Assembly: GCF_024502345.1 (NCBI RefSeq) | Contig: NZ_JALDNN010000001.1 | Strand: one strand, 5' to 3' | DNA length: 64,000 nucleotides | From: Escherichia coli | GTDB taxonomy: Bacteria; Pseudomonadota; Gammaproteobacteria; Enterobacterales; Enterobacteriaceae | In this document: positions 22,070 to 28,079 of the stretch, one piece after another | Layout: the number at the start of each line of letters is the position of its first letter | How positions within the stretch are numbered: position 1 is the stretch's first letter | The notes under the pieces: model-generated | What the model was told of the DNA's origin: nothing | Database searches by the model: none | Seen by the model: the letters and a program-made list of their open reading frames with translations, nothing else | Made by a program: the position numbers and the translations under genes

Positions 22070-22810
22070 ATGTTAATTAACCGCAGTATTGTGGCGTTAT
22101 TTGCGTTGCCTTTTATGGCAAGCGCAACTGCTTCTGAATTATCCATTGGTGCTGGTGCGGCTTATAATGAATCGCCTTATCGCGGTTATAATGAAAATAC
22201 AAAGGCAATTCCGCTGATTAGCTATGAAGGTGATACTTTTTATGTTCGTCAGACCACGTTAGGTTTTATTCTGTCGCAAAGTGAAAAAAATGAACTTAGC
22301 CTGACCGCATCCTGGATGCCGCTGGAATTTGACCCTGCCGATAATGACGATTATGCCATGCAACAGCTTGATAAGCGTGATAGTACGGCTATGGCGGGGG
22401 GTGCCTGGTATCACCACGAGCGTTGGGGAACCGTGAAAGCCTCTGCAGCTGCGGACGTTCTGGATAACAGCAACGGCTGGGTGGGGGAGCTATCGGTATT
22501 CCACAAAATGCAGATAGGTCGTCTGTCGCTGACACCTGCGCTGGGCGTTCTCTATTATGACGAGAATTTCAGTGACTATTACTATGGCATTTCAGAGAGT
22601 GAGTCCCGTCGTAGCGGTCTGGCAAGTTATTCCGCGCAGGATGCCTGGGTGCCCTATGTCAGCCTGACGGCAAAATACCCGATAGGAGAGCACGTCGTAT
22701 TGATGGCGAGCGCAGGATACAGCGAGCTGCCGGAAGAGATTACCGACAGCCCGATGGTTGATCGTAATGAGAGTTTTACCTTTGTCACTGGCGTGAGCTG
22801 GCGTTTTTAA
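22070..22810 (+). CDS. yiaT: Outer-membrane protein YiaT (MipA/OmpV family)
   Basis: 246 aa with signal peptide and C-terminal aromatic residue (ends SWRF). Confidence 0.85.
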   Translation: MLINRSIVALFALPFMASATASELSIGAGAAYNESPYRGYNENTKAIPLISYEGDTFYVRQTTLGFILSQSEKNELSLTASWMPLEFDPADNDDYAMQQLDKRDSTAMAGGAWYHHERWGTVKASAAADVLDNSNGWVGELSVFHKMQIGRLSLTPALGVLYYDENFSDYYYGISESESRRSGLASYSAQDAWVPYVSLTAKYPIGEHVVLMASAGYSELPEEITDSPMVDRNESFTFVTGVSWRF

Positions 22811-22939
22811 TTCACCGGTGGAAGTCGGTGCGGCTGGCCTACGCTCTCGCACCGACTTGTAGGCCTGATAAGACGTGTTAAGCGTCGCATCAGGCAATGT
22901 GCACCCTACGTTGGATGCGGCGCGAGCGCCTTATCCAAC
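22811..22939. repeat. Terminator hairpin plus REP elements between yiaT and the GH127 gene
   Basis: 11-bp stem aagtcggtgcg / cgcaccgactt (22822-22858), then REP-like gtaggcctgataagacgtgttaagcgtcgcatcaggc and gatgcggcgcgagcgccttatcc. Confidence 0.55.
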
Positions 22940-24910
22940 TTACGGATGGCAATGCTTTTCCTCATTCACCCAGATCTTCATTTCGCCTTCACCCCGGTTA
23001 GCCCAGCTAAACCACGGGATAAAGGTCAGAGTTTGCGGCTGGCGTTTGGCTGGGGCATAGTCGTAATGCCACAACGGTTGTTGTTCTGGATTGCTCTGTT
23101 CATACCGGTAACCCGGTGCCTGGATTAAGATCTTATGGCTGAACAATCCCTTACCTTCAAATGTCGTAAATGGCGCATCGGCGGGCAGCCACAGATTATG
23201 CAGTGACTCGCCGTTGTCGGCCTGTTCCAGGCAATACACCAGCAGGCCGCGCTGAATCGCCACTTTTCCGGCGACGTGACGCACCAGCGGGTTACCGTAA
23301 ACGCGGCGTACCGGCATCGGCAAAGTCAGATTCAGCGTATCGCCCTCCTGCCATTCGCGGGTAATGTGCAAATACCCTTTACGAATATCCTGCTCGACCT
23401 CTTCCCCATTCAATATGATCTGCGGCTGTGTGCACCAGTCCGGCAGACGTAAAGCCAGCGTATGACGTACCGGCTGGGGCGATTCAACCGCAATCGTCAC
23501 CTGCTCCTGCCACGGATAGTTCCCGCTAACCCGCAGGCGCAGCGTGCCATTTTCTACCGGCACTTCCATGCTGTTTCCTGCGTAGATGTTGATATACAAC
23601 GCATCTTCACGCGGCGTGTAGAGATAATGACCAATCGAGGTCAGCACGCGGGCGATATTTGGCGGACAACAAGCGCAGCCAAACCAACGCTGGCGGATCG
23701 GTTTAACGTGATCGTAGATATGGTTGAATTTCAGCGATTTTGGATGTACTTCCAGCGGATTCACATAGAAGAAATGTTTGCCATCCAGCGCCATGCCGCC
23801 GAGCACGGTGTTGTACAGTGCGCGCTCCATCACATCGGCATATTGACTGTCGCCTTCCATTTCCAGCATTCGTCGGGCAAACATCATCAGGCCGATGGAG
23901 GCGCAACTTTCAGCGTATACCGTGTCATTCGGCAGATCGTAATCGCTAGTGAACGCTTCGCCGCTGCTTTGCGAGCCAATGCCGCCGGTAATATATAACT
24001 GACGCTGGGCCATATTGTTCCACAGCCGCAGGCAGTCCTGACGCTTGCTGTCATCGTGACTTAAACGCGCGAGATGCGCGACGCCGGTCATCAGATAGAC
24101 AAAACGTACCGCGTGACCGATGGCGGTTTGCTGTTGCGCAAGGGGCAAATGTGCCTGGCTGTAGGCTTTGTCTTTCACCATCCACGCCGGGCCGTAGGTG
24201 TGCCAGTGCGATGTCTGCCCGCGCTTTTCATATTCCTGGTCGTAATAGTGCGGTTGCGCACCACGCTGTTCGACAAAATAGTTCGTCAGCGCCAGGTAGC
24301 GCGGCTCTTCAGTCACTTCATACAGGCGCATTAGTGCCAGTTCAATTTCCGGGTGACCAGGATAACCGTGTAACTTACTTTCATCTGGACCAAATACGCT
24401 GTCGATATTATCGGCCAGGCGGCAAACGACCCCCAGCAAGCGCCGTTTTCCCGTGGCCTGGAAGAAGGCGACTCCGGCTTCAATCAGATGACCTGCGCAG
24501 TAAAGTTCATGACACTCCGCCAGATTGCTCCAGCGTTCTTCGGGTGCTTTTACCGTAAAGTAAGTATTGAGATAGCCGTCTTCGCATTGGGCGGAGGCGA
24601 TCAGTTCGATTACCTCGTCGGCGGTTTTTTCCAGTTCGGCGTCCGGCTTCTGGCACAGCGACCAGGCTACCGCTTCCAGCCATTTGGCGACGTCGCTGTC
24701 CTGAAACACCATCCCGTAAAATTCACCCTCCTGAAGTCCGGCGGCAATGCGAAAGTTTTCAATCGCATGGCTGGGTTCCGCTTCTGGGATACGATCGTTC
24801 AAGGCATCCCACTGATAAGGAATCACCACGTCGCGGACCAGTTGTTGGTACTGACCGAGGAACGGATCGCTGACCGTCAGTTTATGCAGATCGACTTCCG
24901 AAATGTTCAT
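22940..24910 (-). CDS. Glycoside hydrolase family 127-like enzyme (beta-L-arabinofuranosidase family, DUF1680)
   Basis: About 656 aa from ATG at 24910 with AAGGAG RBS. Contains E-x-C (ESCAS) and, about 77 residues later, CACCPPN, matching the spacing of the Zn-binding/catalytic Glu338/Cys340 and Cys417/Cys418 of HypBA1 as I recall it. Confidence 0.7.
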   Translation of the reverse strand: MNISEVDLHKLTVSDPFLGQYQQLVRDVVIPYQWDALNDRIPEAEPSHAIENFRIAAGLQEGEFYGMVFQDSDVAKWLEAVAWSLCQKPDAELEKTADEVIELIASAQCEDGYLNTYFTVKAPEERWSNLAECHELYCAGHLIEAGVAFFQATGKRRLLGVVCRLADNIDSVFGPDESKLHGYPGHPEIELALMRLYEVTEEPRYLALTNYFVEQRGAQPHYYDQEYEKRGQTSHWHTYGPAWMVKDKAYSQAHLPLAQQQTAIGHAVRFVYLMTGVAHLARLSHDDSKRQDCLRLWNNMAQRQLYITGGIGSQSSGEAFTSDYDLPNDTVYAESCASIGLMMFARRMLEMEGDSQYADVMERALYNTVLGGMALDGKHFFYVNPLEVHPKSLKFNHIYDHVKPIRQRWFGCACCPPNIARVLTSIGHYLYTPREDALYINIYAGNSMEVPVENGTLRLRVSGNYPWQEQVTIAVESPQPVRHTLALRLPDWCTQPQIILNGEEVEQDIRKGYLHITREWQEGDTLNLTLPMPVRRVYGNPLVRHVAGKVAIQRGLLVYCLEQADNGESLHNLWLPADAPFTTFEGKGLFSHKILIQAPGYRYEQSNPEQQPLWHYDYAPAKRQPQTLTFIPWFSWANRGEGEMKIWVNEEKHCHP

Positions 24911-24920
24911 CTTGTGCTCC

Positions 24921-26321
24921 TTAAGGCTGTACATGACGCTGACGCAGGTCGGTAGCTATGCGTGACATCATAGGATTATTGAGTTTGCAAAAGCGGATCG
25001 CCCCTGCCAGCAGCAGGTGGAATAGCGCAGGCAGTAATGTTTCCATCGCCGCGATCCCGCCAAGCGAACTGGCGGTCTGGTTTTCCACGCCAGGCTGGTA
25101 GGCGACAAAAATAAACAGCAGGCTGATGATCCCGGCGCTGGAGGCCCAGGCCAGCTTGATGAAAAACAGATTGAAGGCGAAGTTCATGCCGGAAGAACGT
25201 ACGCGGGTTTTCCACTCGCCGTAGTCATCGGCAAAGGCCATCAATGAGAAGTGCAGTGGCAATGTGAAGCCAAGAATTACGCCATTACCGAGGATCACCG
25301 CCAGCCACAGCGTTTGATAAGCCGGGCCGGAGGGCAGGAACCACATCAACACCGCCAGCGCAGCGAGGAGCAGGTTGGTGTAGTAGTAAATTTTGACGGT
25401 ATCGAAACGCCGCGTTAACGGGCTGACAATCACCGAGCCGATAATGGAGGCGAAGGTGACCATGGTGAAGAACAGCGACGTGTAGCCCGTACTGCCTTGT
25501 AAGACGTAGGTAATGAAGTACATATACCCACCGCCGCGAATGTTAAAGACGTTAATCAGCAGGAAAGACATGACCAGCATCAGCAGCAGTTGGTCGTTGT
25601 TCCGCAGCCCGGCAAGATGTTCGCGCAGGGTAAATTTCCCCATTGTGGAGAGCGGCACCCGTTCACGAACCCAGAAGAAACAGCACAGGAACATCACCAC
25701 GGCAATGGCGCACAATACCCCGACGCCCAGTTGATAGCCGCGTGCAGCGTTGCCCTGACCGAAGAGATCTACCATCCACGGTAAGCCTACCGAAACCAGA
25801 AATCCCGCTACGCCGCAGAGAACGAATCGCCAGGGCTGGCAGGAGATCACTTCATTGTGGCGGGTGGTCATGGTGTTGATCAGCGCGCAGTACGGTACGT
25901 TGATGGCGGTATAACCGACTGAAAGGAGCAGGTAAGTACCGAACGCCCAGGCGATTTTTACTCCCATGCTGGCATCTGGCACGGTGAACGTCAGGATGCC
26001 GATAATGCCGATGGGAATGGCAATCCATAGCTGCCACGGACGAAAGCGCCCCCAGCGACTTTGCGTCCGGTCGGCAATGACGCCCATCACCGGGTCGGAG
26101 ATGGCATCAAACACGCGCAGTGCAATAAACAGCGTGCCAACCAGCGCCGGAGTTAATCCAAAAACGTCGGTGTAGAAAAAGGTGAGAAAATTCATGATCA
26201 GGCAAGTTATTACGGTGCCGCCTGCGTCACCCAGGCCGTAGCCTATTTTTTCCCGTACAGATAACGCATCGTCAATTTTACCTTTAGCGATATCAGCGGT
26301 AGTAATCGGTGTAGAGGTCAT
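24921..26321 (-). CDS. Glycoside-pentoside-hexuronide (GPH) family sugar:cation symporter (MelB-like)
   Basis: 466 aa, multi-TM; N-terminal GYGLGD motif typical of GPH transporters; immediately upstream of and co-directional with the GH127 gene. Confidence 0.75.
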
Positions 26322-26546
26322 AGATATTCCTCGTGAATAGGGAGCAATTTTTAGTTTTATTGAAATGACCTGATTAATTCTGCCGTGAACGGGAATATCA
26401 ACAAGGCGAGAAAAGAGTAAAAAAAGGTGACGATTCCGACCTGAATTTAAAAGTGTGAAATGGATCAGGTGAAATTAATGTTTTTGATTAATAATCAAAA
26501 GGTAATGTGTTTAATCATTAATGAATAAGCGGGAAATTACATATCA
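26322..26546. promoter_or_regulatory. Divergent promoter region between the GPH-GH127 operon and the AraC-family regulator gene
   Basis: 225-bp AT-rich intergenic region between divergent starts; contains a partial CRP-like motif tgtgaaatggatcagg. Confidence 0.4.
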
Positions 26547-27362
26547 ATGCTCGAATTATCCATGACGTTACCGATTAAAGTGCAAAATGGTGGATTATTT
26601 ATTTCCCGTGGCGTAGGGAGGCATCCTGCAAGGCGGCTGGAGTCATGGGAAATTATCTTTGTCGAAAAAGGTCGATTAACGATTCAGGAAGAAGAACGGA
26701 TATTTCTGGTCGATGCGGGAGAGAGTTTATTACTCTGGCCGAACCGACAACATGTTGGGGTGGAGGATTTTCCCGCCGATCTCAAATTTTACTGGCTGCA
26801 TTTTGAGGTTAAAGCGCCGGACAACGACCCTCGCTGGCTTACTCATCTTAGCGTGCCGCAACAAACGAAGGTTGTCGATCCGCAGGCGCTGGTGGCCCTG
26901 TTTCGCCAGTTCTTAAGCGAACAGGAAAAGCATCAACGCACTCCGGCGCTGGAGTTTATTGTGCTGCTCATTTTGCAGCAGCTCACCCGTGACGCGCGTC
27001 TTGATGAACAGGCCGATGGCGCAGGCACCACCCTTGCCTGGAAAGCGCAGAAACTGATCCGCACGCAATATCATCGCCCGCTTTCTACGGCGCTTCTGGC
27101 CCGCGAGCTGTACTGCAATGCCGATTATCTTGGGCGCGTCTACCGGCGGGTGTTTCATCTGACGTTAACAGAAGCAATCCATCGCCAGCGGGTGCGCGAA
27201 GCCGAAAAGCTGTTAATTAGCGAAGCGCGATCGCTCACGGAAGTGGCGGCGTTGTGCGGGTTTAATGACGTTGGCTATTTCCGGCAGATTTTTCGCAAAC
27301 ACACCGGTTTAACGCCAGCAGCGTGGAAGCGGCGTTACAGCAAGGAACATATCAATTCGTAG
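26547..27362 (+). CDS. AraC/XylS-family transcriptional regulator
   Basis: 271 aa; cupin-like N-terminal half and C-terminal double HTH (RELYCNADYLGRVYRR ... VGYFRQIFRKHTGLTPAAWKRRY). Confidence 0.8.
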   Translation: MLELSMTLPIKVQNGGLFISRGVGRHPARRLESWEIIFVEKGRLTIQEEERIFLVDAGESLLLWPNRQHVGVEDFPADLKFYWLHFEVKAPDNDPRWLTHLSVPQQTKVVDPQALVALFRQFLSEQEKHQRTPALEFIVLLILQQLTRDARLDEQADGAGTTLAWKAQKLIRTQYHRPLSTALLARELYCNADYLGRVYRRVFHLTLTEAIHRQRVREAEKLLISEARSLTEVAALCGFNDVGYFRQIFRKHTGLTPAAWKRRYSKEHINS

Positions 27363-27402
27363 TGCCGTGTCGATTTCGCTTTCGACATCACGTCTGAAAC
27401 AG

Positions 27403-27504
27403 GTGGGAGAGAAAAATCTCCTGAAACCTCTGCGTGAAACCGCGCAGGCTATTTCTAATGAACTGGGGTTTACTGTCAGGGACGACCAGGGCGCGATCAC
27501 ATAA
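27403..27504 (+). pseudogene. Possible 3' remnant of an IclR-family regulator gene (yiaJ-like)
   Basis: Start-less frame ending at a stop, encoding ...NLLKPLRETAQAISNELGFTVRDDQGAIT, which resembles IclR-family C-termini; sits where yiaJ would end next to ysaA in K-12. Confidence 0.3.
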
Positions 27505-27605
27505 CGCTTTGGACAAGTGCCAAAACTTTAACATTTCCTTCGTTGGATCAAAGCAGTAGGGACGCGCTCTCTGGCACTCTGCTGTTTTAGTGCAAAGGAG
27601 TGATC

Positions 27606-28079
27606 ATGAACCGGTTTATTATTGCGGATGCGACGAAATGTATCGGTTGCCGTACCTGTGAAGTGGCTTGCGCAGTGTCGCATCAGGAGAATCAGGATTG
27701 CGCTGCGTTGTCACCAGACGAGTTTATTTCCCGTATTCGTGTCATTAAAGACCACAGCTGGACCACGGCAGTAGCCTGTCATCAGTGTGAAGATGCACCG
27801 TGCGCGAATGTCTGCCCTGTTGACGCGATAAGCCGCGAACATGGGCATATTTTCGTTGAACAAACACGTTGCATTGGCTGTAAAAGCTGTATGCTGGCTT
27901 GCCCGTTTGGTGCGATGGAGGTCGTTTCTTCGCGCAAAAAGGCGAGGGCGATTAAGTGCGATCTGTGCTGGCATCGGGAGACGGGGCCGGCCTGTGTTGA
28001 AGCCTGCCCGACAAAGGCGTTGCAGTGCATGGATGTCGAGAAAGTGCAGCGGCATCGGCTACGGCAGCAGCCTGTTTGA
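27606..28079 (+). CDS. ysaA: 4Fe-4S ferredoxin-type protein YsaA
   Basis: 157 aa from ATG at 27606 with AAGGAG RBS; multiple CxxCxxC motifs. Confidence 0.85.
   Translation: MNRFIIADATKCIGCRTCEVACAVSHQENQDCAALSPDEFISRIRVIKDHSWTTAVACHQCEDAPCANVCPVDAISREHGHIFVEQTRCIGCKSCMLACPFGAMEVVSSRKKARAIKCDLCWHRETGPACVEACPTKALQCMDVEKVQRHRLRQQPV

Follow-up and report, generated by a model that had tools for sequence, protein, structure and literature searches.

A three-gene module predicted to import and hydrolyze small beta-L-arabinofuranosides is common in Escherichia coli and its relatives

RESULTS

A compact module between yiaT and ysaA

We analyzed a 64,000-nucleotide (nt) stretch of DNA from Escherichia coli (assembly GCF_024502345.1, contig NZ_JALDNN010000001.1), hereafter the window, which carries a three-gene module for the putative use of a plant glycoside between yiaT (22070-22810) and ysaA (27606-28079). 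Two of the genes form a presumed operon on the minus strand: first a gene for a GPH-type (MFS_2) symporter (24921-26321; 466 amino acids) and then one for a glycoside hydrolase of family 127 (GH127; 22940-24910; 656 amino acids, with its ATG at 24910). The third gene, on the plus strand, encodes an AraC-family regulator (26547-27362; 271 amino acids) and is divergent from the GPH-GH127 operon. Only 10 nt (24911-24920) separate transporter and hydrolase, and the hydrolase has its own AAGGAG ribosome-binding site on the minus strand (24917-24922), which overlaps the TAA stop codon of the transporter and lies 6 nt before the ATG at 24910. An in-frame ATG further upstream (24934) would give a protein of 664 amino acids; RefSeq orthologues are annotated with the 656-residue start. 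An earlier note on this DNA had described these coordinates, the gene order, the 10-nt gap, the AAGGAG site, and the motifs of the hydrolase, and each was present as described in the list of open reading frames (ORFs) and the raw sequence. The anatomy of a two-gene operon with a divergent regulator was likewise as it had said.

The GC content of the module genes (0.53 to 0.56) matches that of the flanks. The divergent control region between transporter and regulator (26322-26546; 225 bp), which presumably holds the promoters of both the operon and the regulator gene, is AT-rich, with a GC content of about 0.39. No other glycosidase and no ABC system is present around the module in the RefSeq annotation of the flanks. 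On the far side of the hydrolase, an inverted-repeat search of the spacer toward yiaT (22811-22939) returned three stem-loops (22822-22858, 22863-22895, and 22904-22945). These resemble repetitive extragenic palindromic elements and probably form or stabilize the 3' ends of the convergent transcripts.

The hydrolase is a catalytically complete GH127 protein

Three Pfam families, PF07944 (E = 9e-111), PF20736 (1e-23), and PF20737 (2e-22), together cover residues 12-649 of the hydrolase, giving the three-domain GH127 architecture: a catalytic (alpha/alpha)6 domain, a middle domain, and a C-terminal domain. Searches of the Protein Data Bank (PDB) returned full-length matches to the Geobacillus stearothermophilus GH127 structure 4QJY (E = 2.7e-232, 54.8% identity, query residues 11-650) and to Bifidobacterium longum HypBA1, 3WKW (E = 8.7e-150, 43.4% identity, query residues 11-648), with identities counted from the full-length alignments. 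The GH127 identity that the earlier note had proposed is thus borne out.

In HypBA1, the nucleophile is Cys417, the acid/base is Glu322, and a zinc ion sits in a Cys3-Glu cluster (PMC8106489). All five of its catalytic and zinc-binding residues are conserved in the E. coli protein, where E318 aligns with E322, E334 with E338, C336 with C340, C414 with C417, and C415 with C418. The corresponding codons lie on the minus strand at 23957-23959 (E318), 23909-23911 (E334), 23903-23905 (C336), 23669-23671 (C414), and 23666-23668 (C415). The E-x-C motif is E334-S-C336 and the CC motif is C414-C415, in exact alignment with E338/C340 and C417/C418 of HypBA1; the HypBA1-like spacing and the look of catalytic competence noted earlier therefore stand. 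H134, H186, and H266 also align with HypBA1 H142, H194, and H270, which the structure paper reportedly describes as active-site, sugar-binding residues.

The Bacteroides GH127 structures 6EX6 and 5MQO matched more weakly and only over residues 248-648. The NCBIfam equivalog for aceric-acid hydrolase, NF049879, was not reached (448.7 bits versus a cutoff of 950; residues 252-649 only). Together, the partial Bacteroides matches and the low NF049879 score place the hydrolase in the HypBA1/Ara127N group. A hydropathy scan saw no hydrophobic segment in the hydrolase, and the enzyme is thus cytoplasmic. Judged from these alignments, the protein is a full-length, catalytically complete GH127 member; by analogy with solved relatives at 43 to 55% identity, it is a predicted beta-L-arabinofuranosidase.

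The transporter is a distinct GPH symporter

The transporter matches MFS_2 in Pfam across model positions 1-426 of 427 (E = 4e-72). It also scores 331.8 bits against the NCBIfam model for GPH:cation symporters (TIGR00792; TC 2.A.2), above the curated cutoff of 231.35, and so belongs to the family that the earlier note had named. None of the more narrowly named models was reached: YagG gave 352 bits against a cutoff of 610, the GPH-family model PRK11462 gave 321 against 836, MelB 209 against 456, and UidB 190 against 528. YagG is the closest of these subfamily models, followed by PRK11462. With both scores short of their curated cutoffs, the transporter is orthologous to neither and counts as a distinct member of the GPH family. 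A crude hydropathy scan showed 14 peaks, several of them overlapping, which suggests about 11 to 12 membrane segments. GPH transporters typically carry mono- or disaccharide glycosides.

The regulator and its control region

The regulator has an N-terminal, ligand-binding cupin domain (AraC_binding; residues 26-132, E = 1e-9) and a C-terminal double helix-turn-helix domain (HTH_18; residues 184-263, E = 4e-19), which settles its assignment to the AraC family, as already proposed. It is not an orthologue of AraC itself: it scores 61.1 bits against NF007860, where the cutoff is 208, and reaches no NCBIfam equivalog. The automatic UniProt name, "Arabinose operon regulatory protein," is thus an over-annotation.

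The control region was footprinted phylogenetically by aligning 71 such regions. A pattern match at 26454-26469, which ends some 139 nt before the transporter gene begins, gave a CRP-like site (TGTGAAATGGATCAGG) that agrees with the consensus at 8 of 10 core positions; over the 71 sequences, its TGA...TCACA core shows a conservation of at least 95%. Between this site and the presumed -35 of the operon, the footprint reveals a conserved block of about 45 nt on the minus strand (26397-26441), and directly downstream of the block lies a possible -35/-10 pair (TTGATA, 18 nt, ATTAAT). A 23-nt direct repeat spans 26476-26525. It is only because they are conserved across species that the CRP-like site and the presumed promoter carry weight.

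This layout recalls araC/araBAD, where the regulator is also divergent and a CRP site is followed by araI1-I2; here a CRP-like site is followed by a block abutting the presumed -35. The AraC-family activator may bind this block, which is positioned like araI in araBAD. The araBAD-like arrangement is suggestive only, and the two systems differ in that the regulator is not an AraC orthologue.

The module is conserved and under purifying selection

The module is not rare. It is present in 2311 of 5426 complete E. coli genomes (43%) at a coverage of at least 80%, and in about 70 other enterobacterial species. For the latter, one genome per species was scanned; 262 relatives were found, and the best 80 were kept. 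Orthologues at 76 to 87% identity come from Citrobacter, Klebsiella, Raoultella, Enterobacter, Kluyvera, Kosakonia, Phytobacter, Leclercia, Lelliottia, Buttiauxella, Pantoea, Mixta, Hafnia, Salmonella diarizonae, and others. The arrangement of regulator, transporter, and hydrolase recurs in 69 to 71 of the 80 species loci, in several chromosomal contexts. The module adjoins yiaT-yiaU in Citrobacter, Enterobacter, Leclercia, and other genera, and lies elsewhere in some species. Ratios of nonsynonymous to synonymous substitution (dN/dS; Nei-Gojobori method, window versus eight other loci) are 0.03 to 0.15 for all three genes, which are thus under strong purifying selection.

We clustered 1079 flanking ORFs from the 80 loci. 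Recognized by eye, the recurrent neighbors are apparently SelA/B, AldB, YiaY, YiaTUVW, LyxK, and SgbHUE, and no arabinan, extensin, or arabinose genes were seen among them. Genes resembling lyxK, sgbH, sgbU, and sgbE, also recognized by eye, lie just past the regulator in about 26 to 29 of the 80 species (3 to 8 kb upstream of the AraC-family gene), as they do in full-locus E. coli. SgbE is an L-ribulose-5-phosphate 4-epimerase, an isozyme of AraD; its adjacency to an enzyme predicted to release L-arabinose may be functional or mere synteny.

Two further occurrences lie outside this pattern. Bradyrhizobium species (loci L076-L079, L081, and L083), which are legume symbionts, carry a lone GH127 gene at 71% identity (for example L081:7989-9953), with no GPH or AraC-type partner. 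This identity across bacterial classes suggests horizontal transfer of the gene. Its neighbors (a sensor kinase, peptidase-like, and repeat-rich ORFs) are not obviously sugar-related, and we set this context aside as uninformative about the substrate. The genome of Enterobacteriaceae bacterium MGYG-HGUT-00110 holds the orthologous module (L033) and also a second GPH-GH127 pair (L084:6578-9956) at about 69 to 70% identity, with no adjacent AraC-type homologue. This second pair is a paralogous module, which may differ in substrate or regulator.

Two separate deletions shaped the locus

According to the earlier note, the module stands in place of the ten-gene yiaJ-sgbE cluster that E. coli K-12 carries between yiaT and ysaA. 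This does not hold. In strain PK-F-10122, the one carrier lacking the window's junction whose gene order we inspected, the order is yiaT-GH127-GPH-AraC-sgbE-sgbU-sgbH-lyxK-yiaONMLK-yiaJ-ysaA. With both clusters side by side, the module and the ten-gene cluster are neighbors rather than alternatives.

Each of the shorter arrangements bears the scar of its own deletion. K-12 and HS lack the module through a deletion of 4021 bp plus about 210 bp, the stretch 22838-23047 being absent from scars of this type. Two K-12 pseudogenes, neither mentioned in the earlier note, are what remains of a module that is intact in the window: ysaD (b4649) is a 63-codon fragment of the GH127 gene at 90% identity, and ysaC (b4648) corresponds to the last 33 codons of the AraC-family gene. 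The K-12/HS scar junction is found in at least 2462 genomes, 55989 included.

The window, in turn, lacks 8987 bp relative to PK-F-10122. This deletion starts 5 nt past the stop codon of the AraC-family gene and ends inside yiaJ, with a 4-bp GCCG microhomology at the junction (27364-27367). It removed sgbE, sgbU, sgbH, lyxK, yiaO, yiaN, yiaM, yiaL, and yiaK, along with 708 nt from the 5' end of yiaJ and the terminator hairpin 3' of the AraC-family gene. What is left of yiaJ (plaR) is a plus-strand pseudogene of 141 nt (27364-27504) that holds its last 47 codons (a tblastn match to YiaJ residues 234-282). Also absent from the earlier note, this remnant 3' of the regulator stop is annotated as a pseudogene by RefSeq in ET350 and in O157:H7 TR01.

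The window's junction occurs in 426 of the 5426 E. coli genomes, and 1885 of the 2311 carriers lack it. The window does have the module without yiaK-sgbE, but the two are not exclusive states of the locus. Carriers of the module include O157:H7 Sakai and TR01, close O157:H7 matches to the window, and at least one ST131-type O25:H4 strain. Sakai has the same junction as the window, with the module genes annotated as ECs4457-ECs4459. Among the 5426 genomes, the closest whole-region matches to window positions 12000-36000 are O55:H7 and O157:H7 strains, at 99.0% identity, and the same layout is kept across this lineage. The exact GH127 protein of the window is recorded on only four contigs. The source strain belongs to a lineage that few complete genomes represent.

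The junction between the AraC-family gene and the yiaJ remnant is shared with a non-coli strain, Escherichia sp. E1V33, at 92% identity (L006:5292-5612 versus window 27300-27620), which indicates that the module-only haplotype is old. This haplotype would be either older than the diversification of E. coli or moved by recombination. In Citrobacter, Kluyvera, Leclercia, Silvania, and Enterobacter species, the AraC-family gene stands directly beside ysaA, and a yiaJ remnant is not detectable. In our preferred reading, the module is an old enterobacterial unit, which was deleted in K-12; the lineage of the window, like O157:H7, instead deleted the stretch from sgbE into yiaJ. The apparent substitution is a misreading of two independent deletions.

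Other features of the window

In full-locus strains, a GC-rich hairpin (GCCGGGGC...GCCCCGGC; L002:18554-18577) lies 3' of the AraC-family gene. It is deleted in the window, where a weak terminator-like hairpin at 27429-27448 is the only one left within 27363-27605. With its terminator gone, transcription of the regulator may read through the yiaJ remnant into ysaA. Elsewhere in the window, four near-consensus CRP sites lie within 180 bp at 10018-10194; three are perfect and the fourth has one mismatch. Synteny with locus L002 identifies this stretch as the intergenic region between mtlA and yibI, which is the mannitol operon promoter.

DISCUSSION

A proposed route for small beta-L-arabinofuranosides

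We consider it probable that the three genes are functional and form a self-contained unit for the catabolism of a small beta-L-arabinofuranoside. The AraC-family regulator would sense the glycoside or its product and, together with cAMP-CRP, activate the divergent GPH-GH127 operon; catabolite repression would then probably be part of the control. The symporter, whose family is clear and whose cargo is predicted, would bring the glycoside in with a cation. In the cytoplasm, the GH127 enzyme would cut off the terminal beta-L-arabinofuranosyl residue, using zinc-bound C414 as nucleophile and E318 as acid/base, and the freed L-arabinose would enter the araBAD pathway. The module comes with no further glycosidase, whether secreted or not, and its substrates are therefore likely to be di- or monoglycosides such as beta-1,2-arabinobiose (beta-Ara2) or arabinofuranosyl-beta-hydroxyproline. 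They might come from plant extensins, arabinogalactan proteins, or pectin, freed by other microbes or by plant turnover.

A role in the use of plant beta-L-arabinofuranosides is our best inference from the closest characterized relatives. In B. longum, hydroxyproline-rich glycoproteins are the source of beta-1,2-arabinobiose: a secreted GH121 enzyme frees the disaccharide, which is taken up by a transporter and then cleaved to L-arabinose inside the cell by HypBA1 (PMC8106489; PMC7889515). The E. coli module would share with this system the import of a small beta-L-arabinofuranoside, followed by a cytoplasmic GH127 enzyme with the same Cys3-Glu zinc site, Cys nucleophile, and Glu acid/base. 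It differs in having a GPH cation symporter instead of an ABC importer, in its AraC-type regulator, and in lacking a linked GH121 or other secreted releasing enzyme. Without a releasing enzyme, it would depend on substrate freed by others.

The closest solved relative over the full length is Ara127N (AraN; 4QJY and 4QK0) of G. stearothermophilus T-6. Its gene is the last of araJKLMN, within a 38-kb arabinan-utilization cluster that also encodes ABC transporters and alpha-arabinofuranosidases, whereas the E. coli module is a minimal set of three genes with no arabinan genes. Parallels in architecture are found in K-12 itself. There, yicJ-yicI (with a GH31 alpha-xylosidase) and yagG-yagH (GH43) likewise couple a GPH symporter gene to one for a cytoplasmic hydrolase that acts on small glycosides of plant origin. 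The present module differs from these in the family of its hydrolase and in having its own divergent AraC-type regulator.

Several points weigh against the beta-L-arabinofuranoside assignment and the control scheme. By pattern alone, the CRP-like site is at chance level (32 matches versus 26 expected) and carries two mismatches, and no promoter in the control region passed a simple sigma-70 consensus scan. Enzymes of other specificity, aceric-acid hydrolase and 3,6-anhydro-D-galactosidase among them, also belong to GH127, and family membership therefore leaves the substrate unfixed. The structure paper on Geobacillus Ara127N reportedly assigned the activity by similarity to HypBA1, and a comparative-genomics paper lists araN as a hypothetical protein only. 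Finally, no enterobacterial member turned up in the searchable literature with an assayed enzyme, a phenotype in growth, or data on induction.

Alternative readings

The same architecture could serve another substrate, either a different furanoside or a glycoside of a plant secondary metabolite. The range of GH127 specificities leaves room for this, as does the activity of the nearest solved relative, which was reportedly assigned by homology. None of the 80 loci has arabinose genes linked to the module, the sole NCBIfam match of the hydrolase is to aceric-acid hydrolase, and its PDB relatives include 6EX6 and 5MQO from Bacteroides. That NCBIfam match is far below its cutoff, however (449 bits of 950), and the Bacteroides enzymes align only in part. 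HypBA1 and Ara127N match over the full length at E = 1e-150 to 1e-232, and all the catalytic and zinc-binding residues of HypBA1 are kept, together with the three histidines. We therefore regard another substrate as unlikely. It is also very unlikely that in the lineage of the window the module is silent or decaying, a relic that no longer has a function. Over half of the E. coli genomes have lost it, so it is dispensable in many niches, and the adjoining deletion took the terminator 3' of the regulator gene. Against this, the three ORFs are intact, the catalytic residues are complete, dN/dS is low (0.03 to 0.15, also against another E. coli strain), and the layout is identical throughout the O55:H7/O157:H7 lineage. 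Furthermore, one transcriptome sequencing study recorded a regulated transcript of an E. coli GH127 gene (PMC6561948).

That the module substituted for yiaJ-sgbE, as an alternative allele or as a horizontally acquired cassette, would at first sight explain why the window and 426 of the 5426 genomes have the module without yiaK-sgbE and why K-12 has the reverse. We hold this to be highly improbable. Both clusters co-occur in PK-F-10122, and most carriers (1885 of 2311) do not have the window's junction. There are scars on both sides: K-12 keeps the module fragments ysaC and ysaD, and the window keeps a 141-nt piece of yiaJ and a microhomology junction. The GC content of the module is that of its flanks, and the module sits beside yiaT-yiaU in Citrobacter, Enterobacter, Leclercia, and other genera. 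We accordingly rejected a horizontally acquired replacement island and retain a beta-L-arabinofuranoside module as our preferred reading.

Significance for E. coli and its relatives

The earlier note had called the system uncharacterized, and we agree. Databases name its products at family level only ("glycoside hydrolase family 127 protein," "MFS transporter/permease," and "AraC family transcriptional regulator"), and we found no functional work on the enterobacterial module in the searchable literature. The gene has surfaced incidentally in other settings. The GH127 gene cosegregated statistically with invasiveness among E. coli isolates from inflammatory bowel disease (PMC11879602), and a GH127 transcript rose four- to fivefold, along with lacZ, under zinc oxide nanorod stress (PMC6561948). 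A study of O157:H7 and arabinose on plants states that E. coli cannot reach L-arabinofuranose directly and does not mention the module (PMC8489885). According to another report, L-arabinose metabolism is linked to fitness and virulence regulation in enterohemorrhagic E. coli (EHEC; PMC11127945).

Neither the enzyme class nor the transporter class nor the regulatory logic is new, RefSeq already gives the genes family labels, and the module is ordinary in kind as well as widespread in E. coli and its relatives. The gain from its study would be a substrate assignment and some ecology, with no new mechanism. That assignment may nevertheless matter for O157:H7 and for cross-feeding in the gut. If our reading is true, many E. 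coli use plant glycosides that are closed to K-12, whose deletion left two named pseudogenes. More tentatively, carrier strains, O157:H7 and O55:H7 included, might cross-feed on beta-L-arabinofuranosyl di- and monoglycosides from dietary or plant-surface extensins and arabinogalactan proteins, released by bifidobacteria or plants. This is possible, though we think it more doubtful than the catabolic role itself. The module could then be an unrecognized cytoplasmic source of L-arabinose that affects colonization of the gut or of plants and possibly the arabinose-linked regulation of virulence in EHEC. If such cross-feeding takes place, an old presence/absence polymorphism, with the module in 43% of genomes, would reflect niche adaptation.

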